The notes below the pieces were generated by a model. It made no database searches. It was not told the DNA's origin and saw only the letters and a list, made by a program, of their open reading frames with translations. The translations under genes and the position numbers were made by a program. A stretch of DNA of 64,000 nt from Alphaproteobacteria bacterium (GTDB lineage: Bacteria; Pseudomonadota; Alphaproteobacteria; JAPOUT01; G958296285), in assembly GCA_965204775.1 (NCBI GenBank), contig CBDBFH010000029.1:1-64000 (forward strand), written 5' to 3'. The number at the start of each line of letters is the position of its first letter. The first letter of the stretch is position 1. Of this stretch, positions 25,911 through 63,245 are shown in pieces.

Positions 25911-26047
25911 AGAGGCGGGGATGATAGGGGGGCGGGGGCGCTGAGGGGCGTTTCTATCGCCATATTGACCTCCCTGCCCGCCTGCTTTATAGCAGGCGGC
26001 GGGACACCTCTCCCCACCGAGAGGCAGCTATCTGAAAGGGTAGAAAC

Positions 26048-27223
26048 ATGAATAGCCCCGCCAAACCGGCCATCCGACCCGCGCGCCCCTTCTTCTCCTC
26101 CGGACCCACCGCCAAATACCTGAACTGGTCGCCCGGACTCCTCGAACAGACCGCACTCTCCCGAAGCCACCGCTCAAAAGTTGGAAAAACACGGCTCAAA
26201 AAAGCCATCGCCGAAACTCGCGAACTCCTCCAACTGCCCAAAAACTACCGCGCCGCCATCGTCCCCGCCTCCGACACCGGCGCTTTCGAAATGGCCATGT
26301 GGTCACTGCTCGGACCGCGCGGCGTCGACGTCTTCGCATGGGACTCCTTCGGCAGCGACTGGGCCAATGACGCCAAAAACCAGCTCAAAATCCCCGACCT
26401 GCGAATCCTGCAGGCCGAATACGGCAAACTCCCCGACCTCGCCCAGGCCGATCCAAAACGCGACGCCGTATTCGTCTGGAACGGAACCACCTCCGGCGTC
26501 CGCGTGCCCCACGCCGAATGGATCGCCGACAACCGCCAGGGCCTCACCCTGTGCGACGCCACCTCCGCGGTCTTCGCACAAAAACTGCCCTGGAATAAAC
26601 TCGACGTCGTCACCTTCTCCTGGCAAAAAAGCCTCGGCGGCGAAGCCGCGCATGGAATCCTCATCCTCGGACCGCGCGCCGTCGAGCGGCTCGAAACCCA
26701 CACCCCCAACCGCCCAATCCCCAAAATCTTCCGCCTCACCTCCGGCGGCAAACTCAACGAAGCCCTCTTCGAAGGCGCAACCATCAATACCCCCTCCATG
26801 CTCTGCGTCGAAGACTACCTCGCCGCCCTCAACTGGGTCCGCTCCATCGGCGGCGAAGCCGCCATGATCCGCCGCGCCAACGCCAACCTCCAACTCATCG
26901 CACAATGGGCCGCAAAAACCAGCTGGATCGACTTCCTCTGCGCCAGCCCCGAAGCGCGCTCCAACACCTCGGTCTGCCTCAAAATCACCGACCCCGCCTT
27001 CACCCGCCTCGAAGAAAAAGACCGCAAAGCCTTCGTCAAAAGCATGGCCGCGCTCCTCGAAGACGAAGAGGCCGGATTCGACCTCGACTCCTATCGCGCC
27101 GCACCGCCCGGCCTGCGCCTGTGGGCCGGAGGAACCGTCGAAGCCGCCGACCTCATCGCCCTCTTCCCCTGGCTCGACTGGGCCTACGCCGCCTGCCTCA
27201 ACCGCTTCTCCCCCAAAGCATAA
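26048..27223 (+). CDS. serC: phosphoserine aminotransferase
   Basis: 391-aa class-V aminotransferase; PFFSSGP and FSWQKSLGGEA (PLP Lys region). Confidence 0.9.
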   Translation: MNSPAKPAIRPARPFFSSGPTAKYLNWSPGLLEQTALSRSHRSKVGKTRLKKAIAETRELLQLPKNYRAAIVPASDTGAFEMAMWSLLGPRGVDVFAWDSFGSDWANDAKNQLKIPDLRILQAEYGKLPDLAQADPKRDAVFVWNGTTSGVRVPHAEWIADNRQGLTLCDATSAVFAQKLPWNKLDVVTFSWQKSLGGEAAHGILILGPRAVERLETHTPNRPIPKIFRLTSGGKLNEALFEGATINTPSMLCVEDYLAALNWVRSIGGEAAMIRRANANLQLIAQWAAKTSWIDFLCASPEARSNTSVCLKITDPAFTRLEEKDRKAFVKSMAALLEDEEAGFDLDSYRAAPPGLRLWAGGTVEAADLIALFPWLDWAYAACLNRFSPKA

Positions 27224-33260: not shown

Positions 33261-33354
33261 TGATCTCCTGCCGTAGGGGCGGAGTGCCGCCTCCGGCAGA
33301 TATCTCTTGACGGGGCAGGGCTTCAAACCCCATCCTCCCACAGGAGAGAGATAC
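33261..33354 (+). promoter_or_regulatory. diverged copy 3 of the Sel1 leader/promoter block
   Basis: Contains ccgcctccggcagatatctcttgacggggcagggcttcaaacc...caggagagag. Confidence 0.3.
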
Positions 33355-34602
33355 ATGCCGAAATTCACGAAAATCACGCTCGCCTTTTTCCTCACCGGAA
33401 TGCTGGCGCAGGCCCCGGTGACAAGCGCCGAAGAGAACCTCGCCGATCTCAAAACCCGCGCCGAGGACGGACAGGCGGCGCAGTGGTATCGCAAAGCCGC
33501 CGAACAGGGAGAGGTGGCCGCGCAAAACAATCTGGGCGTTCTCTATGGGACAGGGGAGGGCGTGACGCAGGGGTGGGGGAAGGCAGTGCAGTGGTGGCGC
33601 AAAGCCGCCGAGCAGGGAGATGCAGTAGCGCAATACAAACTGGGCGTTCTCTACGAGAAAGGCCAGGGTGTGGCGCAGGATTACGCGCAGGCGGCGCAGT
33701 GGTATCGCAAGGCCGCCGAACAAGGGGTTGCAGAAGCACAATACAATCTGGGCGTTCTCTACGCGCAAGGCCGGGGCGTGGCGCAGGATTCCGCTCAGGC
33801 GGCGCAGTGGTATCGCAAGGCCGCCGAACAAGGATTTGCAGAAGCACAATACAATCTGGGCGTTCTCTATGGGACAGGGGAGGGCGTGACGCAGGGTTGG
33901 GGGAAGGCGGTGCAGTGGTGGCGCAAAGCCGCCGAACAGGGAGATGCTGTAGCGCAATACAAGCTGGGCGTTCTCTACGAGAAAGGCCAGGGTGTGGCGC
34001 AGGATTCCACTCAGGCCGCGCAGTGGATTCGCAAGGCCGCCGAACAGGGAGAGGTAAACGCACAGCGCACTTTGGCCTTTCTCTACGAGAAAGGCCGGGG
34101 TGTGCCGCAGGATTCCGCTCAGGCCGCGCAGTGGTTTCGCAAGGCCGCCGAACAGGGAGATGCGAGCGCGCAAAACAGTCTGGGCTTTCTCTACGAGAAA
34201 GGCCGGGGTGTGCCGCAGGATTCCGCTCAGGCCGCGCAGTGGATTCGCAAGGCCGCCGAACAGGGAAATGCACTTGCGCAAGCCAGGCTGGGCTTTCTCT
34301 ACGAGCAAGGCCGGGGTGTGGCGCAGGATTCCACTCAGGCCGCGCAGTGGTTTCGCAAGGCCGCCGAACAGGGACATGCACCCGCGCAAGCTGGTCTGGG
34401 CATTCTCTACGCTCAAGGCTGGGGCGTGGCGCAGGATTATAAGGAGGCTTATATCTGGTATAGCCTCGGGGCGGCCAATGGGTATAGCTCAGCTGAAGCA
34501 GGGCGTGATGAAGTGGCGGCGAGGCTTTCCCCAAAGGCCCAGCGCGAAGCCCAAAAAGAGGCGAAGCGGCGTCTCCAGCAAATCAGGGCGCGGCAGAAGT
34601 AA
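33355..34602 (+). CDS. secreted Sel1-like repeat protein, paralog 4
   Basis: Signal peptide MPKFTKITLAFFLTGMLAQAPVTSA followed by about 10 Sel1 repeats; an internal repeat block GTGEGVTQGWGKAVQWWRKAAEQGDAVAQYKLGVLYEKGQGVAQD is duplicated. Confidence 0.85.
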   Translation: MPKFTKITLAFFLTGMLAQAPVTSAEENLADLKTRAEDGQAAQWYRKAAEQGEVAAQNNLGVLYGTGEGVTQGWGKAVQWWRKAAEQGDAVAQYKLGVLYEKGQGVAQDYAQAAQWYRKAAEQGVAEAQYNLGVLYAQGRGVAQDSAQAAQWYRKAAEQGFAEAQYNLGVLYGTGEGVTQGWGKAVQWWRKAAEQGDAVAQYKLGVLYEKGQGVAQDSTQAAQWIRKAAEQGEVNAQRTLAFLYEKGRGVPQDSAQAAQWFRKAAEQGDASAQNSLGFLYEKGRGVPQDSAQAAQWIRKAAEQGNALAQARLGFLYEQGRGVAQDSTQAAQWFRKAAEQGHAPAQAGLGILYAQGWGVAQDYKEAYIWYSLGAANGYSSAEAGRDEVAARLSPKAQREAQKEAKRRLQQIRARQK

Positions 34603-34945
34603 GCGCAGGGACGCGGCCCGCAGGCCTGCGCCCTTTGTGATTCGCCCGGCGCTTCGCACGGCGGAAAACCCGGACATTGGCGCAAATCTCCTTGCGCGCC
34701 ATCCGCGCCTGCGCCAGCGAATAAGCCTGCTGAAGGCGCAGCATAAAGTCGGCATCCAGTCCAAACGCCTTCTCAATCCGCAACGCCATTTCCGCAGACA
34801 AATTCACCCGCCCGTTGACCATCGCCGAAACCGACTGACGGCTCATCCCCAAAATCTCCGCCGCCTGCTTGATCGAAACTCCAAGGGGCTTCAAAACCCC
34901 CTCCAGAATTATCTCGCCGGGGTGGCTTGGATCATACATCGGCAT
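34583..34945 (-). CDS. higA: HigA family addiction-module antitoxin (XRE HTH)
   Basis: PMYDPSHPGEIILEGVLKPLGVSIKQAAEILGMSRQSVSAMVNGR; the last 14 codons are antisense of the Sel1 paralog-4 3' end. Confidence 0.8.
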   Translation of the reverse strand: MPMYDPSHPGEIILEGVLKPLGVSIKQAAEILGMSRQSVSAMVNGRVNLSAEMALRIEKAFGLDADFMLRLQQAYSLAQARMARKEICANVRVFRRAKRRANHKGRRPAGRVPALTSAAP

Positions 34946-35007
34946 TTTCAGTCACTCCCTGCCTTGCCCGGGCAAGTGTAAAGCGGAGGTTGACGCCTGT
35001 CAACCCC

Positions 35008-35298
35008 CTAGTGATAATCTTCGAGAGAGACGTCGTAGACGTCCTGTCCGTCAAAGCGGAATGTGACCCGCCAGTTCCCGGAAATCCGGACGCTCCAGAA
35101 ACCCCTTCTACTGCCCCCCAAAGGGTGAAGGCGGTAGCCGGGCAGGCCATCAAATGCATCAAGGGAGGTCATCTTATCCAGCAGGGCCAAAACCTGCTTC
35201 AATCTTTCGGCAAAGTCAGGGTTGATACCCTTCCGGCTCCCGGTCTTATAGAATCTTTCCAATCTCTTATTCTTATTGGCAAAGGTTTTTATGGACAT
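35008..35298 (-). CDS. higB: HigB toxin (RelE/ParE superfamily mRNA interferase)
   Basis: 96 aa; plasmid-maintenance killer-protein pattern (FDGLPGYRLHPLGGSRRGFWSVRISGNWRVTFRF); located upstream of higA; reduced GC. Confidence 0.8.
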   Translation of the reverse strand: MSIKTFANKNKRLERFYKTGSRKGINPDFAERLKQVLALLDKMTSLDAFDGLPGYRLHPLGGSRRGFWSVRISGNWRVTFRFDGQDVYDVSLEDYH

Positions 35299-35443: not shown

Positions 35444-35710
35444 TCAACTAAAGATTAAACCAAGCAACGCAAGAATTAGCATAGGAATTCCTATTAGCAA
35501 AAATGCCCAAAATCCTATTACAAGGATGATAAAAATACCTGCCAAAATAAAGGGTAACAACAATGCCCCTAACACTGCCCCCAGTAATGCACCTCCAATT
35601 ACTCCTAATATTCCTCCACCAGAACCCCAGATTCCCCCGATAATCATGCCTATGAAAGCTCCGAAATCTTCGGCATCTCGATCGCCATTCGGTATCTTGC
35701 CCCTATCCAT
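35444..35710 (-). CDS. small glycine-zipper membrane protein (about 88-99 aa)
   Basis: Charged N-terminus followed by GxxxG-rich double TM (IGGIWGSGGGILGVIGGALLGAVLGALL...); markedly AT-rich (about 40% GC); the longer start at 35743 would overlap tldD. Confidence 0.4.
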   Translation of the reverse strand: MDRGKIPNGDRDAEDFGAFIGMIIGGIWGSGGGILGVIGGALLGAVLGALLLPFILAGIFIILVIGFWAFLLIGIPMLILALLGLIFS

Positions 35711-35723
35711 TCGCTTTGGCCGA

Positions 35724-37151
35724 TTAAGTTTTCGTGCCTCCAACCGTCAACCCCGCAATCAGAAGACTCGGCTGGCCAACCCCGACCGGTACGCTCTGCC
35801 CGTCCTTGCCGCACGTCCCGATCCCCGGATCCAGCGCCATGTCATTCCCGATCATCTTCACCTTCGTCAAAACATCCGGCCCGTTGCCAATCAACATCGC
35901 TCCCTTTAACGGCGCCCCAATCTTGCCGTTCTCAATCCGGTACGCTTCCGTGCACGAAAACACAAACTTGCCGCTCGTAATGTCAACCTGACCACCACCA
36001 AAATAGGGCGCGTATATCCCACTCTTCACCGAACCAATCATCTCCTCCCGGTCATGAACACCGTTCAGCATGAACGTGTTCGTCATGCGCGGCATCGGAA
36101 CATGCGCATACGACTCCCGCCGCCCGTTACCCGTCGGCGCGCGACCCATAACCCGCGCATTCAGACGGTCCTGTATGCAACAACGCAAAATCCCGTCCTC
36201 AATCAATACCGTCCGCGACGCCGGAGTCCCCTCGTCGTCAATCGTCAATGATCCCCGACGGTCCGGCAACGTCCCGTCATCCACAACCGTCACTCCAGGC
36301 GAGGCAATCCGCTTGCCCTCCAGACCCGCAAAGGCCGACGTCCCCTTCCGGTGAAAATCCCCCTCCAATCCATGACCCACCGCCTCATGCAGCAAAATCC
36401 CCGGCCAGCCCGAACCCAAAACCACATCCATCTCTCCCGCAGGCGCTGGAACCGAACCCAAATTCACCAATGCCTGACGCAATGCCTCGTCAACCTGACC
36501 GCGCCAGCAACCCGGCTCTATGATCCGCCCATAACCATAACGCCCGCCGGAGCCGCTCATCCCAGACTCCCGCCGCCCACCGCCCTCAACAATCACCTGA
36601 ACCGAAAGACGAACCAAAGGCCGAATGTCAAAAACTACACCCCCGGAACGCACAATCCCCACAACCTGCCACTCCCCCGACAACGACGCGCTCACCTGCC
36701 TGACCCGGCTGTCACGACCCCGCGCATAGACGTCCATCTCGCGCAGCAGCGCAACCTTGTCCTCAAATCCCTCCCCCTCCAGAGGATCGTCCCCGCCATA
36801 GGCGCGCGCATTCGTCCGCCGCGGAGCCAAAGCCGCACCGCCCCCTCCGCCCCGCAAAACCGAACGAACCGTCTCCCCCGCCCGCCTCAGCGAACCCTCC
36901 GAAATCTCCGAACTATGCGCATAGCCCGTCCGCTCGCCCGAAACCGCCCGCAAGCCAACGCCGCTCGTCTCGTCAAAACGCGCCGTCCTGATCCGCCCGT
37001 CGTCCAGACCCACCGACTCCGAGCGCCGAAACTCAAAAAACGCCTCACCATCATCACAACCGCGCAACGCCTCGCCAACCAAACGCTCCACACGCCCCCG
37101 GTCCAGACCGTGACGCGAAAACAAAAACTCCTCCGCTCGCGCCCCCATCAC
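35724..37151 (-). CDS. tldD: metalloprotease TldD
   Basis: HEAVGHGLEGD, GNGRRESYAHVPMPRMTNT and GGQVDITSGKFVF motifs; collinear with E. coli TldD over its full length. Confidence 0.9.
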   Translation of the reverse strand: MMGARAEEFLFSRHGLDRGRVERLVGEALRGCDDGEAFFEFRRSESVGLDDGRIRTARFDETSGVGLRAVSGERTGYAHSSEISEGSLRRAGETVRSVLRGGGGGAALAPRRTNARAYGGDDPLEGEGFEDKVALLREMDVYARGRDSRVRQVSASLSGEWQVVGIVRSGGVVFDIRPLVRLSVQVIVEGGGRRESGMSGSGGRYGYGRIIEPGCWRGQVDEALRQALVNLGSVPAPAGEMDVVLGSGWPGILLHEAVGHGLEGDFHRKGTSAFAGLEGKRIASPGVTVVDDGTLPDRRGSLTIDDEGTPASRTVLIEDGILRCCIQDRLNARVMGRAPTGNGRRESYAHVPMPRMTNTFMLNGVHDREEMIGSVKSGIYAPYFGGGQVDITSGKFVFSCTEAYRIENGKIGAPLKGAMLIGNGPDVLTKVKMIGNDMALDPGIGTCGKDGQSVPVGVGQPSLLIAGLTVGGTKT

Positions 37152-54963: not shown

Positions 54964-55011
54964 CTCTTCCGCCCGGACCCGTATCATCAAACCCGACATG
55001 CGCATGAAAAG

Positions 55012-55200
55012 CGCGCGCGGGAGAGACCGGTTGACGGCGCCGAAGGAGCAATCCCCGAAAACTCTCAGGCAAAAGGACCGCACGCGAAAACGCGCAACTC
55101 TGGAAAGCAAGCCGAATCAAACATGATCCGGCTTCACCGAAGGGGTAACGCGGGCTGACGCCCGTTAAATCTCTCAGGTCAAGCGACAGAGGGGGCGAGC
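55012..55200 (+). promoter_or_regulatory. tandem glycine riboswitch (two aptamers) in the gcvT leader
   Basis: Aptamer 1: GGGAGAG...GCGCCGAAGGAGCAA...CTCTCAGGCAAAAGGAC; aptamer 2: CTCTGGAAAG...CACCGAAGGGGTAACGC...CTCTCAGG...GACAGAGGG; followed by hairpin gcctgccgggcaggc ahead of ATG 55250. Confidence 0.75.
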
Positions 55201-55249: not shown

Positions 55250-56422
55250 ATGACAGCGCAACAACAGGCACACGGCAGGCCGACCCCGCTCCATGCCCTG
55301 CATACGGAGCGGCGCGCCCGCTTCGCCCCCTTCGCCGGATATGCCCTGCCGGTCTCCTTTCCCCCAGGGATTCTGGCCGAGCACCGCCATACCCGCACCG
55401 CCGCCGGCCTGTTCGATGTTTCCCATATGGGGCAGGCCGATCTCGAGGCCGATCCCGCCTGCCTCGAAACCCTCTTCCCCGCAGATATCGCCGGACTGAA
55501 CGCGGGGCGTCTGCTCTACACGATCCTGCTCAACCCCCAGGGCGGGATCATTGACGATCTGATCATCGCCCGCCTGTCCGGCAGCCTCTTCCGGATCGTC
55601 ATCAATGCCGCCGGGGCGGAAAACGTCTGCGCCCATATCGCGCAATCTCTGGCCGGGCGCGCCACCCTGCGCCCCCGGCCCGATCTGGCTCTGCTCGCCC
55701 TGCAGGGGCCTTTGAGCGCGCCGGCGCTGGGCAGCCTGTCGCCGAAAGCCGTCCGCCTGCCTTTCATGGCCGCCGCCGCCCTCGATCTGGCCGGACATGC
55801 CTGTCTCGTCAGCCGGTCGGGCTATACCGGCGAGGACGGCTATGAAATCTCCATCCCCGCCGAAGGGGCCGAAACGCTGGCCCGGCAACTGCTCGCGCAA
55901 GACGGCGTAAAACCCGCCGGGCTGGGCGCGCGCGATTCGCTCAGACTCGAAGCCGGCCTGTGCCTCTATGGCAGCGATATCGACGAAACCACCTCCCCCC
56001 TTGAAGCCGGACTCCTCTGGACCATCCCGCCCCGCCGCCGCGCCGAAGCCAATTTCCCCGGGGCCGCCGCCCTGGCCGCACAGATCGAAAACGGCGCCCG
56101 GCGCCGCCGCATCGGCCTCAAAATCAAAAGCCCGCGCCCCGTCCGCGCCCATGCCGAAATCCTCGACGCCAACCGCCGGCCCGCCGGACTCGTCACCAGC
56201 GGCGGAATCGCCGCAACCTGCGATTCCCCAATCGCCATGGGCTATGTCCGCACCGGCTGCGACTCCCCCGGCTCCCCCCTCTTCGTGCGCGCCCGCGATT
56301 CCCTCCTGCCCGCCGAAGCCCATCGCCTGCCCTTTCGCCCCCATCGCTATCACCGGCCCAAACCAAACCCCTCAACAACGCGAGAACGCCATGAGCGAAA
56401 CCTTTTACACCGATCAGCATGA
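55250..56422 (+). CDS. gcvT: glycine cleavage system aminomethyltransferase T
   Basis: GLFDVSHMGQ motif; C-terminal PFRPHRYHR is followed by a 15-aa tail that overlaps gcvH by 32 nt. Confidence 0.9.
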   Translation: MTAQQQAHGRPTPLHALHTERRARFAPFAGYALPVSFPPGILAEHRHTRTAAGLFDVSHMGQADLEADPACLETLFPADIAGLNAGRLLYTILLNPQGGIIDDLIIARLSGSLFRIVINAAGAENVCAHIAQSLAGRATLRPRPDLALLALQGPLSAPALGSLSPKAVRLPFMAAAALDLAGHACLVSRSGYTGEDGYEISIPAEGAETLARQLLAQDGVKPAGLGARDSLRLEAGLCLYGSDIDETTSPLEAGLLWTIPPRRRAEANFPGAAALAAQIENGARRRRIGLKIKSPRPVRAHAEILDANRRPAGLVTSGGIAATCDSPIAMGYVRTGCDSPGSPLFVRARDSLLPAEAHRLPFRPHRYHRPKPNPSTTRERHERNLLHRSA

Positions 56423-56777
56423 ATGGATCCGTCCGCGCCCCGGCGAACCGGCGCGCAGCGGAATCTCCAACTACGCCCAGGATCAGCTCGGCGATATCGT
56501 CTTCGTCGAACTGCCCGAGCCGGGCCGCGCCGTCAAACAGGGCGAGGAAATCGCCGTCGTCGAGTCGGTCAAGGCCGCCAGCGAAGTCTACGCCCCGGTG
56601 AGCGGAACCATCACCGCCGTCAACGGCAAACTCACCAACGACCCCGCCCTCGTCAACGGCGACGCCGAAGGCGAAGGGTGGTTCTTCGAAATCATGCCCG
56701 AAAACGAAAGCGCCGCCGCAAGCCTGATGGACGCCGACGCCTATCGCGCCTTCCTCGACGGACAGAGCCAGGCCTGA
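56391..56777 (+). CDS. gcvH: glycine cleavage system protein H
   Basis: EWIRP...VESVKAASEVYAP lipoyl-Lys motif. Confidence 0.9.
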   Translation: MSETFYTDQHEWIRPRPGEPARSGISNYAQDQLGDIVFVELPEPGRAVKQGEEIAVVESVKAASEVYAPVSGTITAVNGKLTNDPALVNGDAEGEGWFFEIMPENESAAASLMDADAYRAFLDGQSQA

Positions 56778-56781
56778 ACCC

Positions 56782-58122
56782 ATGCGCTACCTCCCGCTCT
56801 CCGAAGCCGACCGCGCGCAAATGCTCGCCGCCATCGGCGTCCAGACCATCGACGGCCTCTTCCGCGACGTCCCGCCGCACCTGCTCAATCCGCCCCTCAA
56901 TCTGCCCCCGCCCATGAGCGAAATCCAGGTTGAGCGCGCCCTCGCCGCCTGCGCCGCCAAAAACCGCGCCGCCGAAGGCGGACCCTCCTTCCTCGGCGCC
57001 GGAGCCTATCGCCACCACATCCCGGCCAGCGTCGATCACCTGATCCAGCGCTCCGAATTCATGACCGCCTATACCCCCTATCAGCCCGAAATCGCCCAGG
57101 GCACCTTGCAGATGCTCTTCGAATTCCAGACCCAGACCGCCCTCCTGACCGGAATGGATGTCGCCAACGCCTCCATGTATGATGGCTCCAACGCCTGCGC
57201 CGAAGCCGTCTTGATGGCGCATCGAATCACCAAACGGCCAAAAGCCGTCCTCTCACCCGCGCTCCATCCGCATTACCGCGCCTGCGTCGAGACGCTGAGC
57301 GGCTTCGCCGGAAAAGAGGTGGTCGAGGCTACGCCCGCCGGGGGGCTTCAGGCCATGACCTCGGCCATCGACGCCGACACCGCCTGCCTCGTCGTCCAGA
57401 ACCCCGACGCCTTCGGCGCCATCGCCGACCTCGCCCCGCTCGCCGAAGCCGCCCATGCCCGAGGCGCGCTCCTGATCGCCGTCTTCACCGAGGCCCTCGC
57501 GCTGGCCGCAATCAAGCCGCCCGGCGAAATGGGCGCAGACATCGCCGTTGGGGAAGGCCAGTCCTTCGGCAATCCAACCAATTTCGGCGGCCCTTATCTG
57601 GGCCTCTTCGCCGCCCGCGAGAAATTCCTCCGCCAAATGCCCGGACGCCTCTGTGGCGAAGCCCGCGACGCCCAGGGCCGCCGCGGCTACGTCCTCACCC
57701 TCGCCGCCCGCGAGCAGCATATCCGCCGCGAGCGCGCCACCAGCAATATCTGCACCAATGCCGGGCTGTGCTGCCTCGCCTTCACCTGCCATCTCGCCCT
57801 CCTCGGCGGCGAGGGACTCGCCAGACTCGCCGCCGTCAACCATGCCGCCGCCGTCCAACTGGCCGAAGCCCTCGAAGCCATCCCCGGCGTCCGGCAGCGC
57901 ACCCCGGACTTCTTCAACGAATTCACCTTCGAAACCCCCATCCCCGGCGCAGAACTCACCGCCGAACTCGCCCGCCAAAATATCCTCGCCGGAGTCCCGG
58001 CCAGCCGCCTCTGGCCCGAACGCGAAAACCTCAAAAACTGCGTCATCACCGCCGCCACCGAACTCAACACCGCAGAAGACGTCAACGCCTATGCCAGCGC
58101 CCTGAGAAAACTCCTCGCATGA
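56782..58122 (+). CDS. gcvPA: glycine dehydrogenase (decarboxylating) subunit 1
   Basis: MRYLPLSEADRAQML...YTPYQPEIAQG motif. Confidence 0.9.
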   Translation: MRYLPLSEADRAQMLAAIGVQTIDGLFRDVPPHLLNPPLNLPPPMSEIQVERALAACAAKNRAAEGGPSFLGAGAYRHHIPASVDHLIQRSEFMTAYTPYQPEIAQGTLQMLFEFQTQTALLTGMDVANASMYDGSNACAEAVLMAHRITKRPKAVLSPALHPHYRACVETLSGFAGKEVVEATPAGGLQAMTSAIDADTACLVVQNPDAFGAIADLAPLAEAAHARGALLIAVFTEALALAAIKPPGEMGADIAVGEGQSFGNPTNFGGPYLGLFAAREKFLRQMPGRLCGEARDAQGRRGYVLTLAAREQHIRRERATSNICTNAGLCCLAFTCHLALLGGEGLARLAAVNHAAAVQLAEALEAIPGVRQRTPDFFNEFTFETPIPGAELTAELARQNILAGVPASRLWPERENLKNCVITAATELNTAEDVNAYASALRKLLA

Positions 58123-59642
58123 AGCCTCCCGCTCCCAAGCCCGCCATAACGCCAATCGCGCCGCCGCGCCATCGCGCGCTCCAGCTGGAAGAGCCGCTCC
58201 TCTTTGAAAAAAAACGCGGCGGCTGCGGCGTCGACATCGATCCCCCCCCGCCCGTCCGGTCCCGCCTCGGAAAACTCGCCCGCCGCCGCCCCGTCAGCCT
58301 CCCCGGCCTCTCCGAACCCGAAGCCATGCGCCATTTCGTTCGCCTCAGCCAGAAAAACTACAGCATCGACTCCGGAATCTTCCCGCTCGGCTCCTGCACC
58401 ATGAAGCACAACCCCCGCCTCAATGAAAAAGTCGCCCGGCTTCCCGGCTTCGCCGGACTCCACCCCCTCCAGCCCCTCGAAACCGCCCAGGGCGCGCTCG
58501 AACTCATGCATATGCTCAGCGCGTGGCTCACCACGCTGTGCGCCATGCCCGCCATCGCGCTCAGCCCGCGCGCCGGAGCACAGGGCGAAACTTGCGGCAT
58601 GATGGCCATCCGCGCCGCCCTCGCCGCGCGCGGCGAGGCGCAATCCCGAACCCGCGTCCTCGTCCCCGACTCGGCCCACGGCACCAACCCGGCGACCGCC
58701 GCCATGCCCGGATGGAAAATCGACCCCGTCCCCGCCGGACCCGACGGGCGGCTCAACCTCAAGGTCTTCCGCGAAAAACTCGGACCCGACGTCGCCGCCC
58801 TCATGCTCACCAACCCCAATACCTGCGGCCTCTTCGAGCGCGACAGCCTCAAAATCGCCGAAGCCCTCCATCAGGCCGGAGGCTTCTTCTATTGCGACGG
58901 CGCAAATTTCAACGCCATCGCCGGGCGCGTCCGCCCCGGCGACCTCGGCGTCGACGCCATGCACATCAATCTCCACAAAACCTTCTCCACACCCCACGGC
59001 GGCGGCGGGCCGGGGGCCGGGCCGGTCGTTTTCTCGCAGGCCCTCGCCCCCTTCGCGCCGCTCCCCGTCCTGCGCCGCGAAAACGGCGGCTTCCGCCTCA
59101 TCGAAAACCCCGCCGAAGCCCGCAAGGCCGGTCTCTCACCCTGCGGGCGGCTCACCGCCTTCCACGGACAGATGGGAATGTTCGTCCGCGCCCTGGCCTA
59201 TATCCTCGCCCAGGGCGGCGACGGGCTGCGCCAGGCCTCCGGCGACGCCGTCCTCAACGCCAACTACATCCTCGCCCAACTCAAGGACACCCTCAGCGCA
59301 CCCTTCCCCGGACCCTGCATGCATGAGGCGCTCTTCGACGACCAATTCCTCGAAGGAACCGGCCTCCAGACCCTCGACTTCGCCAAGGCCATGATCGACG
59401 AGGGCCTCCACCCGATGACCGTCTATTTCCCCCTCGTCGTGCGCGGCGCAATGCTGGTCGAGCCGACCGAAACCGAATCCAAAGCCTCCCTTGACGAATT
59501 CATCGCCACCCTGCGCCGCCTCGCCGAGCGCGCCCAATGCGAGCCGGAGCGCCTCAAAGCCGCTCCCGTCCACGCCCCCCGATCCCGCTTCGATGAAACC
59601 CAGGCCGCCCGCCGCCCCGTCCTGCGCTGGGAGGGAAACTAA
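58119..59642 (+). CDS. gcvPB: glycine dehydrogenase (decarboxylating) subunit 2
   Basis: ATGA overlap with gcvPA; PLGSCTMKHNP motif and HINLHKTFSTPHGGGGPG (PLP Lys region). Confidence 0.9.
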   Translation: MKPPAPKPAITPIAPPRHRALQLEEPLLFEKKRGGCGVDIDPPPPVRSRLGKLARRRPVSLPGLSEPEAMRHFVRLSQKNYSIDSGIFPLGSCTMKHNPRLNEKVARLPGFAGLHPLQPLETAQGALELMHMLSAWLTTLCAMPAIALSPRAGAQGETCGMMAIRAALAARGEAQSRTRVLVPDSAHGTNPATAAMPGWKIDPVPAGPDGRLNLKVFREKLGPDVAALMLTNPNTCGLFERDSLKIAEALHQAGGFFYCDGANFNAIAGRVRPGDLGVDAMHINLHKTFSTPHGGGGPGAGPVVFSQALAPFAPLPVLRRENGGFRLIENPAEARKAGLSPCGRLTAFHGQMGMFVRALAYILAQGGDGLRQASGDAVLNANYILAQLKDTLSAPFPGPCMHEALFDDQFLEGTGLQTLDFAKAMIDEGLHPMTVYFPLVVRGAMLVEPTETESKASLDEFIATLRRLAERAQCEPERLKAAPVHAPRSRFDETQAARRPVLRWEGN

Positions 59643-59782
59643 AGAAAAGTTGGGAATAAGACGATTTTCCAATTTAGATTCGCTTGACTCATGATTCTGG
59701 GCCTTTTAATGATGTTTGGATACAGAATGGTTGGCGCTTGACATATTGAGTAGCGCCTAGTTTCCTTGCAGGAGGGGTATTG

Positions 59783-61207
59783 ATGAATGAATTTTCAGTT
59801 AGTGGTGAGCCTGCCAGGTTAATTCCAACCGCAGCCCCTTCCGCGAAAGAGAAAAGGACTGTTTCTGCTTTTCTGGCTACCGTAAGCGCAGTCCGTCCAT
59901 TGGCGCAACGGATTTTATCTAGGTTAGGTGTAAGTATTCCTGACTCTGGAAATCTTACATGCTTAACTGAAATAACCTTCAAAAATGCAAAGGAAAAAAG
60001 TGGTCGTCCAGATGGACTTATCTATTTTAAGAGGGGCAAAAAAGAGTGGAAGGCGATAGTTGAAGCAAAAACTGATAAAGCCCAAATAGATATTGAGCAA
60101 TTAGAGCAATATGTAGATTTAGCTAAGACTAACCAAATTGATGCGCTCATAACCATTTCGAACCAATTCACTGCTTTTCCTGATCATCATCCTCTCGGTG
60201 CGGAAATAGATAAACGCAGGCTGGGAAGCGTAGGCCTTTTTCATTTATCTTGGCAGTCCATTCTGACACATGTTGCTTTGTTGCATTCGGATGAGAACTA
60301 CGCCCGAAGTGCAGGGGAGGCCTATATCCTGAAAGAGTTTATGAGATTCCTTGGTCATAGAGCGTCGGGAGTGGAGCACTTTACTAAAATGAATAATGAG
60401 TGGCCAGACTTGGTAAAAAGGGTGCAAGAGGGGGCAAGTATACATAAGAACTCTTCCGAAGCTTTGAATACCGTGGCAAGTTGGCATCAGGAGCAACGAG
60501 ACCTCGCCCTGTTAATGTCCGAGAAAACAAAGACGAGTGCAGCTCTCTATATTTCGAGAAAGCACAAAAACGACCCCGTGGCGCGAATAAAAGAAGATGC
60601 AGAGGTTTTAGCCAGTCGTAATGAATTGAACCTTGATCTACACATTCCCAATGTTGCAGGGAATATTTATGTACAAGCTGATATAAAAGGTAGAACATTG
60701 CGTTGCTCAATCAAGGTTGGAGCCCCGAAAGATAAAAAAAGAACTAGTGCGCGAGTGAATTGGTTGCTTCGCCAGTTAAGCCAAGCTCCTGGCTCCAAGG
60801 TGCTTATCTGTCTCAGATCCAAAGGTCGTCGTAGCCTGCAAGTCCCCCTTCAAAAAGTGCGGGACGGCGATCCGTCTGTGAACGGCTACGAGAACGTAGA
60901 AAGTTTTGAAATTATTATGGTAGATTATCTCGCAAGGGATTTTTCTTCATCTCGTAAATTTATAGAGAGGTTGGAAAAATTTACGCTGTCTTTTTACGAA
61001 CACGTTGGAGAAAAGTTGGTGCCTTGGATAGAACGGCCTCCTCGCATAAAACACTCTCCTGAAGAATTAGAGAAAGAGTCAGAAGTTATGGTAAGCAGTG
61101 CCGGTCAAGCTTCTTCTACGCCTGAGCCAAAGTCTCCTGCGTCTGAAGCGGAGATTGCTCGTGAAGACAGGCCAACAACAGATGGATACTCATCTTCGCA
61201 AGAATAA
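59783..61207 (+). CDS. PD-(D/E)xK nuclease-domain protein of unknown function (474 aa) in a low-GC islet
   Basis: N-terminal ...SAKEKRTVSAF...GRPDGLIYFKRGKKEWKAIVEAKTD = E...PD...ExK restriction-endonuclease-fold signature; the rest has no recognisable motif and no P-loop; strong RBS GGAGGGG; GC about 40-45% versus about 67% in flanks. Confidence 0.55.
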   Translation: MNEFSVSGEPARLIPTAAPSAKEKRTVSAFLATVSAVRPLAQRILSRLGVSIPDSGNLTCLTEITFKNAKEKSGRPDGLIYFKRGKKEWKAIVEAKTDKAQIDIEQLEQYVDLAKTNQIDALITISNQFTAFPDHHPLGAEIDKRRLGSVGLFHLSWQSILTHVALLHSDENYARSAGEAYILKEFMRFLGHRASGVEHFTKMNNEWPDLVKRVQEGASIHKNSSEALNTVASWHQEQRDLALLMSEKTKTSAALYISRKHKNDPVARIKEDAEVLASRNELNLDLHIPNVAGNIYVQADIKGRTLRCSIKVGAPKDKKRTSARVNWLLRQLSQAPGSKVLICLRSKGRRSLQVPLQKVRDGDPSVNGYENVESFEIIMVDYLARDFSSSRKFIERLEKFTLSFYEHVGEKLVPWIERPPRIKHSPEELEKESEVMVSSAGQASSTPEPKSPASEAEIAREDRPTTDGYSSSQE

Positions 61208-61220
61208 AGCTGGATGCCGC

Positions 61221-61724
61221 CTAATCGCGACGCGCTACGTCAAGACCCCCAGCGTCAAAACGTGATTCAATCTCCTCAATCGCCCGCGCAACCGACTTCG
61301 CCTGCTCCGCCTCCTCCCCGGACAGAATGATCCGCGCCGCCCGAACCGCCAGCGCCGCCGTCTCAGTCTCAATCCGCCGAACCGCCGCGCGCCCCGCCTG
61401 CGCAATCCGCTGATCCGCCATCTCCTCGCGCCGCGCCAGAAGCTCCTCCGTCTTGCGCCGCTCCTCCGCCGCGCGCCGCTCCGCCTCCTCCAGACCCTCG
61501 CGCACAATCGCCTCGGCCTCCACCTTGCTCGCGCGCAATTTCTTCTCCTGCGCCTCCAGAATCTTCAAAGCCTCGGCGCGTAAACTCCGCGCCTCCTCCA
61601 ACTCCTCGCGAATCGCACGGCCCCGCGCATCCAGCCCCGCCAGAACACGCTGCGGAACCCGCAAATAAACCAACAGCGCCGCAAGACCCGCAAAACTCAC
61701 CAAAACCCAGAAATCCGCGCTCAT
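61221..61724 (-). CDS. atpF: F0F1 ATP synthase subunit B
   Basis: N-terminal TM followed by a long Ala/Glu/Arg coiled coil; conserved atpB-E-F'-F order. Confidence 0.85.
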   Translation of the reverse strand: MSADFWVLVSFAGLAALLVYLRVPQRVLAGLDARGRAIREELEEARSLRAEALKILEAQEKKLRASKVEAEAIVREGLEEAERRAAEERRKTEELLARREEMADQRIAQAGRAAVRRIETETAALAVRAARIILSGEEAEQAKSVARAIEEIESRFDAGGLDVARRD

Positions 61725-62213
61725 CTACCCCTCCGCCTTCGCCCGCCGGACCGCCCGCGACGCCTGCGCCGCGCTCGTCTCCCCGCCGGTCAGGCGCTCG
61801 ACGATCAACTGCGCCGTTCGAACCGCCGCCGCCTCAATCGCCCCCGCGCTCTTCTCCGTCATCACCGCAATCCCGGCCTCGGCGCCGGAAACCCGCTCCT
61901 TCAGCGCCGCCGCGTGCGCCTCCTTTTGCCCGTCCAGCTTCTGCCGGGCCTCCTCCTCTATCCGCCGCGCCCGCGCCCGCGCCGCCTCCCGCGCCTCCCC
62001 CCGCGCCGCATCATAGGCCGCCTCCGCCTCCCGCGCCCGCGACAGCGCCGCTTCCGTCTCCTCCCGGCGCCCCTGCGTCAGACGGCGGCGCTCCTCCAGC
62101 GTCTCCGACAGCGCCGGAAGCGCATAGCGCGACAAAAAAATATACAAACACCCAAAAACCACCGCCAGCCAGAATAACTGCGACGGATAAGAGGCAAACT
62201 CCAACTGCGGCAT
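61725..62213 (-). CDS. atpF2: F0F1 ATP synthase subunit B'
   Basis: MPQLEFASYPSQLFWLAVVFG... TM followed by a coiled coil. Confidence 0.85.
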   Translation of the reverse strand: MPQLEFASYPSQLFWLAVVFGCLYIFLSRYALPALSETLEERRRLTQGRREETEAALSRAREAEAAYDAARGEAREAARARARRIEEEARQKLDGQKEAHAAALKERVSGAEAGIAVMTEKSAGAIEAAAVRTAQLIVERLTGGETSAAQASRAVRRAKAEG

Positions 62214-62237
62214 CCGATCCCGGCCTCCGCGACCGCC

Positions 62238-62465
62238 CTAAAAGACAAACAACAGAATCATCGCGACCATCAGGCCAAACAGACCCGTCGCCTCGGTCAG
62301 CGCAAAGCCCAGAAGCAGATTGGGAAACTGCCCCTGCGCCGCATCCGGATTGCGCAGCGCTCCGGACAGGTAATTCCCGAAAATCACGCCAATCCCAACC
62401 CCGGCTCCCGCCAGCGACAGGCACGCAATCCCCGCTCCAATCAATTTTGCTGCTTCCGCGTCCAT
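62238..62465 (-). CDS. atpE: F0F1 ATP synthase subunit C
   Basis: 75-aa proteolipid; GAGIGIG...ALTEATG. Confidence 0.9.
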   Translation of the reverse strand: MDAEAAKLIGAGIACLSLAGAGVGIGVIFGNYLSGALRNPDAAQGQFPNLLLGFALTEATGLFGLMVAMILLFVF

Positions 62466-62489
62466 CTTCTCCTCCTTTCCTGGGTGAAC

Positions 62490-63245
62490 TCAATGCGCCA
62501 TGTGCAGCGCATCATTGAGATAAATGCAGGTCAACACCGCAAAGACATAGGCCTGCAAAAAGGCAATCAGAATCTCCAGCGCCGAAAGCGCCGTCATCAG
62601 CGCCAGAGGCGCAAAGCCCCACGCCCCCATCAAAATCACAAAGCCCGCAAAAACCTTCAGCATCGTATGCCCGGCCATCATATTCGCAAACAGGCGGACC
62701 GAAAGACTCAAAGGGCGGGTCAGATAGGAAATAATCTCAATCACCACCAGCAGCGGCAGCAAAACCGCCGGAATCCCCCGCGGAACAAAAAAGCGCAAAA
62801 AACCCGCCCCGTGCCGAGTAAAACCGATCAACGTCACCCCAACAAAAATAAATCCGGCAAAGGCAAAGGTGACAATAATGTGGCTCGTCACCGTGAAGGA
62901 ATAGGGAACCATCCCCAGCATGTTGCAGGCCAGAATGAACACAAACAGCGTGAACACAAACGGGAAATAGCGCATCCCCGCCTCGCCCGAATTCTGCCTC
63001 ACCATATTGGCGACAAACTCATAACTCAGCTCGGCAACCGACTGCCACCGCCCCGGAACCACCGCCCGCCGGCGCAAGCCCGCAAGCATGAATCCGGCAA
63101 CCGCCAGACCCGCCAGAAGCATCCACAACGAGGCGTTCGTGAAGGACAAATCCGCCCCCCCCAAAGAGGGCAGGGCAATCAGCCGGTGCACCTCAAACTG
63201 GTGCATCGGATCAACCGGAAACCCGCTGCCCGCCGCGCTCATCAT
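62490..63245 (-). CDS. atpB: F0F1 ATP synthase subunit A
   Basis: Polytopic membrane protein; LSVRLFANMMAGH (essential Arg). Confidence 0.9.
   Translation of the reverse strand: MMSAAGSGFPVDPMHQFEVHRLIALPSLGGADLSFTNASLWMLLAGLAVAGFMLAGLRRRAVVPGRWQSVAELSYEFVANMVRQNSGEAGMRYFPFVFTLFVFILACNMLGMVPYSFTVTSHIIVTFAFAGFIFVGVTLIGFTRHGAGFLRFFVPRGIPAVLLPLLVVIEIISYLTRPLSLSVRLFANMMAGHTMLKVFAGFVILMGAWGFAPLALMTALSALEILIAFLQAYVFAVLTCIYLNDALHMAH

Follow-up and report, generated by a model that had tools for sequence, protein, structure and literature searches.

What is a single low-GC gene doing between two housekeeping operons, and what does its product do? The question is raised by a 64-kb stretch of alphaproteobacterial DNA (contig CBDBFH010000029.1; hereafter the window), in which a 1.58-kb islet of 44% guanine plus cytosine (GC) at 59643-61220 separates gcvPB, ending at 59642 on the plus strand, from the convergent atpF open reading frame (ORF; 61221-61724, minus strand). 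The islet's sole ORF runs on the plus strand from an ATG at 59783 to 61207, stop codon included; it is intact, encodes 474 amino acids (aa) and fills the gap. An earlier reading made from the letters alone (the sequence-only reading) had described this gap and its 474-aa ORF, and both the coordinates and the ORF held up. It took the product for a solitary PD-(D/E)xK nuclease, possibly a defence or toxin enzyme, on an old insertion. Our analysis strongly favors the nuclease and a horizontal origin, one that appears recent rather than old. Overall, we read the gene as encoding a standalone restriction-type endonuclease that is regulated and acts in conflict or stress, an interpretation about as likely to prove right as wrong.

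The nuclease domain and the C-terminal module

To examine the nuclease assignment, we modeled the protein with AlphaFold2 from 37 homologues (predicted local distance difference test [pLDDT] 86.6, predicted template-modeling score [pTM] 0.75), a check that the sequence-only reading had itself proposed. In the predicted structure, the N-terminal residues 1-170 (59783-60292) contain the alpha-beta-beta-beta-alpha-beta core of the restriction-endonuclease fold. The domain runs from strand 5-10 (with the conserved ARLIP) through helix 22-46 (E23), strand 57-66 (E63), strand 78-84 (D77), strand 87-95 (E94 and K96), helix 104-116 (Q106 and Y110), and strand 121-126 (N127) to strand 151-156 (H154 and W157) and helix 157-169. 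The candidate catalytic residues fall where this fold places them: D77 opens strand 78-84, E94-x-K96 closes strand 87-95, and 16 residues separate D77 from E94. Their codons span 60011-60070 (D77, GAT, 60011-60013; E94, GAA, 60062-60064; K96, AAA, 60068-60070).

All the residues on which the sequence-only reading had based its PD...ExK call are present, namely E23 in SAKEKRTVSAF, D77 in GRPDGLIYF, and E94 and K96 in KAIVEAKTD. Conservation was counted over 268 family members, and among those without a gap at the position, D77 was kept in 262/263 and E94 and K96 each in 264/265. Q106 and Y110 were conserved to the same degree (265/266 each), as was N127 (267/268), and the window protein retains every family-invariant residue. 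Near-invariance across the family shows that the motif matches did not arise by chance. The fold, the placement of the motifs, and purifying selection all agree, which confirms the nuclease call, and we consider a PD-(D/E)xK fold with an intact active site highly probable. The predicted domain is a cleavage domain of the FokI/Mrr/AF1548 type, with presumed nuclease activity. Domains of this type are normally non-specific cutters that a separate domain steers. In one 616-aa relative (P0232), the catalytic residues are gone (E94 to V, K96 to N) and the C-terminus is prolonged by an acidic stretch of ~150 aa; judging by its sequence, this protein may be an inactivated derivative.

Profile searches placed the protein near known nucleases and inside none of them. 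Pfam returned only sub-threshold matches, to Mrr_cat (PF04471, 12.6 bits against a cut-off of 21), VRR_NUC (PF08774, 15.7 against 23.8), and HSDR_N_2 (PF13588, 14.1 against 25). All three are PD-(D/E)xK families, and all three matched the same residues, within 49-128. Searches of NCBIfam and PHROGs with the window protein were empty, and PDB sequence searches, with the single sequence and with the family profile, gave nothing meaningful. In PADLOC-DB v2.0, which dates from 2023 and covers systems catalogued until then, the best match was a spurious one to PglZ (E 0.0098, 12 bits), and SduA was not matched. The sequence-only reading was right that the protein matches no known defence family, and that it is a solitary nuclease without a methylase, ATPase, or helix-turn-helix partner, its neighbors being gcvPB and atpF. 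Its comparison to Shedu- or Mrr-like enzymes found no support, given the lack of an SduA match and the Mrr_cat score.

The rest of the protein, ~330 aa, had been said to match nothing recognizable. This is true at the level of sequence and no longer at the level of fold, where residues 172-425 (60296-61057) form a module with two parts. The first is a helical region (177-279) with a conserved WHQExRD motif at 234-240. The second is an alpha/beta domain (281-409) resembling type III secretion system (T3SS)/YbjN (TY) chaperones, with a beta-meander sheet, helices packed on one face, and the conserved motifs APxDKK (314-319) and NWLxRQL (326-332). The likeness lies at the fold level only, at 6-14% identity, and does not establish homology; Pfam profiles for YbjN, CesT, and similar families did not match the window protein. 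TY chaperones are peptide-binding modules, with families predicted to act in antiviral conflict systems (PMC9503650). The module's own conserved polar motifs indicate that it has a distinct functional surface. Used alone as a homologue query, it retrieved four fragments only, in a search restricted by a word index. The protein ends in a disordered Ser/Glu/Pro-rich tail (426-474; 61058-61204), with pLDDT below 50 over residues 442-474.

The family and its likely function

The islet gene belongs to a family that is large and yet has gone unseen by annotation. At E<=1e-3, searches of clusters built at 90% and at 50% identity gave 1,273 and 1,303 matches, respectively, and the more than 1,300 proteobacterial clusters at 50% identity are called "hypothetical." The members match over their full length at about 40% identity, are 430-520 aa long, and carry no precomputed Pfam domain. 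The gene is always solitary: across 84 loci it had no conserved neighbor, neighbor orientation was random, and the largest cluster of homologous neighbors took in 8 loci, with offsets that varied. Just one of the 116 immediate neighbors was a methyltransferase, so the gene is solitary and lacks a cognate methyltransferase in the manner of type IV restriction enzymes.

Actinobacterial homologues add a further domain. These are ~680-aa fusions of a bona fide N-terminal TerD domain (PF02342, E 6e-47) to the same nuclease module, as seen in Rhodococcus, Streptomyces, and Nocardia (L088 7239-9278, L089 7215-9257, and L177 9001-11082), and they retain the catalytic residues. This branch accounts for more than 2,000 further matches, entered in public records, misleadingly, under the names "TerD family protein" and "stress response protein SCP2" with the nuclease half unannotated, which explains the stray "SCP2" names on some proteobacterial homologues. 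On actinobacterial linear plasmids, the fusions neighbor genes of the RES toxin, ThiF/MPN, and DUF3883 types. One proposal holds that TerD senses specialized nucleotide derivatives in conflict systems (PMC7159879). The domain was seen only in actinobacterial homologues; the window protein starts directly at the nuclease module.

A second accessory element sits at the opposite end of some relatives. In 23 of the 268 members (~9%; P0005, P0032, P0042, P0049, P0054, P0085, P0119, P0129, P0142, P0248, and others), a long disordered linker leads to a C-terminal peptide such as LEIPDFLRR, IELPAFLRR, or IPHWLRR, which closely resembles the conserved FtsZ C-terminal peptide DYLDIPAFLRKQAD. Elsewhere in these proteins, the pattern occurs at a density of 0.0115 per 25 aa. 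The FtsZ peptide docks FtsA, ZipA, MinC, ZapD, ClpX, and SlmA (PMC4117426), and the resemblance suggests that the tail serves this subset as a divisome tether, a ClpX degron, or a decoy. The tail of the window protein has no such terminal peptide.

How might a solitary nuclease of this kind work? We propose that the C-terminal module would control or target cleavage by the N-terminal domain, most plausibly by binding a protein or peptide, extended peptides being the usual ligands of the TY fold, with a DNA feature as the alternative ligand. Such an enzyme would cut DNA only on cue and would be harmless to its host without a methylase or antitoxin partner, a scheme familiar from type IV restriction enzymes and abortive-infection nucleases. 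Gating by the C-terminal module would also allow the enzyme to be tolerated on arrival in a new host. That the TY-like domain is what gates cleavage is, however, a tentative suggestion, and somewhat doubtful. The proposal comes in two versions. In the first, the enzyme would be modification-dependent and type IV-like; this version is weakened because it has no known reader fold, with no SRA, Mrr-N winged helix, McrB-N, YTH/EVE, or similar modified-DNA reader domain recognized in the window protein. In the second, binding of a peptide or protein would trigger it as an effector of abortive infection or stress, in line with the TY fold and the TerD and tail add-ons. These extra control or localization elements in relatives are what one might expect of a regulated effector.

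If the enzyme acts in conflict, defence genes should be found in its company, and to some extent they are. We surveyed neighbors at ±1 and ±2 positions with a crude ORF caller and report families, so per-member counts are approximate; the control was 116 random chromosomal ORFs from gcvPB loci. Among the 116 non-redundant ±1 neighbors, the defence genes were Hhe-like (4), AriA (2), and one each of SIR2, Tmn, PD-Lambda-5, NACHT/iREase, YobI, and Mrr; among the 94 at ±2, they included HerA, Uzume (UzuA), AbiL (AbiLi), ThsA, LmuA, AriA, and CapP. Specific defence genes thus made up ~12/116 at ±1 and ~10/94 at ±2, compared with approximately 0-2/116 in the control. Matches to MADS, PDC-S15, methyltransferase, and kinase (PD-T4-6) models among the neighbors were discounted because the random control ORFs gave identical matches; these generic models (mad2/mad3, methyltransferase, kinase, and PDC-S15) were the only ones the control matched.

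Individual loci illustrate the association. The copy in Thioalkalivibrio sp. ALE23 is flanked by NERD+UvrD on one side and Thoeris (ThsA 1e-47, ThsB 3e-81) on the other, with two toxin-antitoxin pairs (YoeB/YefM and HicAB) nearby, at a locus that differs from other Thioalkalivibrio. In Halomonas, where the locus also varies, two copies stand downstream of guaBA with differing cargo, one of them with a NACHT protein and a RelA/SpoT gene, and a third copy stands beside an IS21 element and an MvaT-like gene. A Wadjet-like reading of the DUF3584/DUF7281 cluster beside the Halomonas stenophila copy was dropped, as PADLOC did not support it. At three independent loci of metagenomic origin (L109 11543-17044, L110 11529-17498, and L118 5741-10378), where the family proteins are only 41-45% identical, a giant Hhe-like gene (1,545-1,989 aa; DUF4011 helicase/MTES_1575 REase/DUF3320) lies directly downstream on the same strand. 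A two-gene system was rejected for now, given gaps of 125-229 bp and ~95% of loci without the giant; the adjacency could reflect defence-island proximity or occasional functional pairing.

Several observations weigh against a defence effector. Defence neighbors amount to ~10% across about 84 loci compared with about 1-2% in the control, an enrichment that is real but modest, and in the window itself the gene's neighbors are housekeeping operons only. The family is almost absent from phages: a search of 50,697 phage records gave 0 matches, and 2.9 million viral contigs yielded 2 loci. In four Parvibaculales-like genomes, it is syntenic and vertically inherited beside methylmalonyl-CoA mutase, in the order HNH, gluQ-like, Mem_trans, three unknown genes, family gene, mutase. 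The three unknowns (L003, L006, L172, and L173; ~100, 370, and 230 aa) are conserved, Pfam-less, and divergently upstream of the nuclease gene. The TerD-fused branch is chromosomal and 80-96% identical across Rhodococcus, Nocardia, and Prescottella, which is unusual for a defence gene, and in N. farcinica it sits amid core genes (cmk, der, peptidase M3, family gene, and an extracytoplasmic function [ECF] sigma factor). To these we add the missing reader domain, which counts against the type IV-like version, and the weak expression signals of the islet, discussed below.

Several of these observations favor the most serious alternative, a cellular stress-response or DNA-processing nuclease, housekeeping-like and possibly tied to the cell cycle, of which the window copy would be a xenologous replacement or addition. 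The syntenic alphaproteobacterial proteins (47-60% identical), the conservation of the TerD branch across Nocardiaceae genera, the near-absence from phages, the FtsZ-like tails, and a median GC offset from flanks of only -0.018 over 61 loci would all be expected of such a gene. Yet its distribution is patchy, with the gene in 0/80 alphaproteobacterial gcvPB loci (~13 kb each, testing the junction rather than whole genomes), and its locus is variable within Thioalkalivibrio and Halomonas, including the IS21/MvaT context. In addition, defence neighbors exceed the control, proteobacterial members have diverged strongly (about 40-50% identity), and repair or replication genes do not recur as neighbors. 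On balance, we see this alternative as a real contender that is nevertheless rather unlikely. For the defence role that the sequence-only reading had suggested, the excess of defence neighbors and one textbook island stand in its favor, and the Parvibaculales synteny and housekeeping-level conservation in Nocardiaceae stand against it, leaving a role in defence or conflict evenly poised.

A bolder version of the effector reading, which we think unlikely, would make the protein an unrecognized single-gene immune sensor-effector, in which the TY-like domain captures an extended peptide from an invader or a perturbed host and thereby unleashes the FokI/Mrr-type nuclease. If so, TerD and the FtsZ-like tail would have been built in as sensors or decoys, with TerD responding to a Ca2+ or nucleotide-like signal. 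The FtsZ-like peptide, for its part, would anchor the nuclease at FtsA and the divisome, or else lure phage factors whose target is the FtsZ tail, which would make it a bacterial counterpart of an integrated decoy.

Arrival at the gcvPB/atpF junction

The base composition of the islet sets it apart from its host. In 300-bp windows, GC was 0.38-0.47 inside the islet compared with 0.63-0.74 in both flanks, and the ORF stood at 0.441 against 0.645 for the remainder of the window. The islet is the lowest-GC 1.4-kb stretch of the 64 kb (the next independent dip, at ~34.7 kb, is 0.51). GC at third codon positions (GC3) was 0.39 in the islet gene vs. 0.71-0.86 in host genes. GC3 skew, measured for the host on plus-strand genes at 55250-59642 and minus-strand genes at 61221-63245, was +0.17 in the islet gene vs. 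-0.45 to -0.59 in host genes on the same strand; host minus-strand genes gave +0.41 to +0.70 on the coding strand. The host's strand asymmetry is itself unusually strong, with a whole-window GC skew of -0.17 and an excess of C on the plus strand whatever the gene orientation; skew of opposite sign occurs at ~19-21 kb and 29-34 kb.

Because the islet gene has neither the GC content nor the strand bias of its host, its insertion is recent, and we hold recent horizontal transfer to be very probable. The earlier description of an "old, domesticated horizontal insertion" was therefore right about horizontal origin and wrong about age, since the GC3 and GC3 skew values are unameliorated. The gene's GC offset from its flanks (-0.204) is the most extreme of 62 family loci; over the other 61, offsets averaged -0.027 and ranged from -0.172 to +0.110. 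The window protein shares only 39-43% identity with the alpha and gamma groups alike, and identity within those groups is 46-73% and 54-70%, respectively. Being equally distant from both, it points to a donor lineage that has not been sampled. The donor genome would have had a GC content of about 40-45%, and native hosts of the family with 37-45% GC exist.

The site of insertion could be reconstructed from relatives. Of the 80 most similar alphaproteobacterial gcvPB loci reaching far enough, 26 retain convergent gcvPB facing atpF-atpF'-atpE-atpB (atpF itself was detected in 23 of these 26), among them Parvibaculum, Rhodomicrobium, Hyphobacterium, Oceanicaulis, and Sneathiellaceae, and the arrangement is ancestral. 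In none of the 80 loci, and so in none of the 26 conserved junctions, was a homologue of the islet gene found. This was the junction comparison proposed by the sequence-only reading, and it turned up no host-GC orthologue there. The source GcvPB is at most 72% identical to that of Parvibaculum and others; with the nearest relatives at only ~70%, the comparison spans distant genomes rather than a recent presence/absence polymorphism. Relatives' spacers at this junction measure 94 bp to 5.3 kb and hold assorted ORFs, always at host-like GC. The variation in spacer length and ORFs (L008-L087) marks a tolerated insertion spot. Here, the islet would have replaced a short spacer, and for this genome it appears to be a clean case of very recent single-gene transfer into a conserved convergent junction.

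Of the usual marks of a genomic island, the islet shows its anomalous composition and the lack of a counterpart at this site in relatives; an integrase or recombinase, a tRNA target, and flanking direct repeats are missing. The islet holds a single ORF and no integrase or recombinase, tRNAs are absent from the whole window, and direct or inverted repeats at the islet flanks were limited to short matches consistent with chance, leaving no insertion scars. These scans agree with what had been noted from the letters. No Rfam families were found in the islet region. The insertion begins 0 bp from the gcvPB stop and ends 13 bp from the atpF stop.

Can the gene be expressed in its new host? An AT-rich leader (59643-59782, GC 0.41) starts right after the gcvPB stop codon, and translation signals are good. 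The strong ribosome-binding site reported earlier is a canonical Shine-Dalgarno sequence, AGGAGGGG, at 59770-59777, 5 nt before the ATG; an alternative TTG start at 59780 would give 475 aa. Transcription signals are poorer. The TTGACA hexamer that had been called promoter-like is present at 59738-59743, but has no acceptable -10 element at 16-18 nt and as a promoter is no better than chance. A promoter scan of the islet gave one candidate (TTGACT at 59684, 18 nt, AATGAT), compared with 1.5 expected from shuffles, and no terminators were found compared with 2.7 expected. With 13 bp (61208-61220) between the convergent stops and no intrinsic terminator, read-through from the atp operon would run antisense to the nuclease gene. 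Without an identifiable promoter or terminator, and with atp transcription entering its 3' end, the gene may be poorly expressed.

These signals raise the possibility that the gene is silent cargo, intact only through its recent arrival and unexpressed or non-functional in this host. Its extremely foreign codon usage would be in keeping with this, as would a GC content that we take to be typical of xenogeneic-silencing targets. Still, the ORF is full length with a canonical ribosome-binding site, and every family-invariant residue is retained. We therefore consider silent cargo improbable; moreover, it concerns expression in this host only and leaves the molecular assignment uncontradicted.

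A selfish mobile nuclease is, in our view, more improbable still. Such an enzyme, either a free-standing endonuclease of the homing type or an orphan restriction enzyme, would promote its own insertion into intergenic spacers through the cuts it makes, at no benefit to the host. Free-standing PD-(D/E)xK homing endonucleases are known, a single-gene islet placed precisely between two stop codons without integrase, tRNA, or repeats has the look of one, and 12 of 61 family loci show a GC deficit of 0.11-0.17 against their flanks. However, no recurrent target site or conserved flank was seen in the family, its neighbors differ in almost every locus, two clades show long-term synteny, and no copies interrupting other genes or lying within introns or inteins were found. 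Homing would also leave the large conserved C-terminal module unexplained. Finally, an assembly or binning chimera is very improbable even though the source is a singleton metagenome-assembled genome without close relatives and the compositional break is very sharp, because the host-like flanks reproduce the gcvPB-atpF-atpF'-atpE-atpB junction conserved in 26 other alphaproteobacteria and this synteny resumes beyond exactly one complete gene.

Elsewhere in the window, a second GC dip (0.49 at 35-36 kb) coincides with a higBA type II toxin-antitoxin pair on the minus strand (34583-35298), comprising a HigB-like toxin (35008-35298; PF05015, E 1e-14) and an HTH_3 HigA-like antitoxin (34583-34945). 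A 99-aa hydrophobic ORF without a family match adjoins it (35444-35743), and a 431-aa protein with nine Sel1 repeats (PF08238, E 1e-93; 33307-34602, plus strand) lies directly upstream of the dip; the Sel1-repeat DNA gives rise to long spurious ORFs in alternative reading frames and on the opposite strand. On the plus strand, a glycine riboswitch aptamer (55008-55090, 68 bits) precedes gcvT, as expected for a gcvTHP operon, and a serC leader was found at 25997-26048 (71 bits).

Comparison with known systems

The closest parallels in design are the modular FokI/Mrr/AF1548-like enzymes (FokI, PaqCI, BspD6I, MspJI, AspBHI, and Mrr), which likewise join a nuclease to a separate non-catalytic module, and the type IV enzymes among them share with the window protein a solitary gene without a methyltransferase. 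By contrast with type IIS and type IV enzymes, the window protein scores below the Mrr_cat, VRR_NUC, and HSDR_N_2 cut-offs, places its nuclease first in the domain order, and carries a helical and TY-like module rather than an SRA, winged-helix, or FokI-type recognition domain.

A second comparison is with PD-(D/E)xK defence effectors that are single-gene or fused to a sensor, such as Shedu SduA, Cap4, Can2/Card1, and Avs/NLR nuclease domains; the point in common is that some relatives of the window protein lie in defence islands. Unlike these effectors, the window protein has no SAVED, CARF, STAND, or DUF4263 domain and matches no PADLOC model, and its candidate sensor is a TY-chaperone-like fold. 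TY chaperones (YktB/DUF1054, AmyR, and DR_1245) resemble that domain at the fold level only; the window domain differs from them in being fused to a nuclease and in having motifs of its own, and its peptide binding is putative. As for TerD stress proteins, actinobacterial homologues fuse TerD to the same nuclease module, whereas the window protein has no TerD domain.

Neither the family nor its pairing of a restriction-type nuclease with a TY-like domain was found in Pfam, NCBIfam, PADLOC 2.0, PHROGs, or the searchable literature, and in that literature we found no description of a TY-like fold fused to a nuclease. Sensor-fused nucleases of the PD-(D/E)xK fold do much of the effector work in bacterial immunity and have supplied many molecular tools. 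The architecture seen here, a nuclease with a chaperone-like, putatively peptide-binding module, has gone undescribed, and its accessories in relatives (TerD and the FtsZ-tail mimic) are informative. A clear functional answer would either reveal another defence system or establish a stress nuclease that is conserved. Set beside known systems, the nuclease superfamily and the sensor-plus-nuclease logic are familiar; the family and its nuclease/TY-chaperone-like architecture appear to be new.

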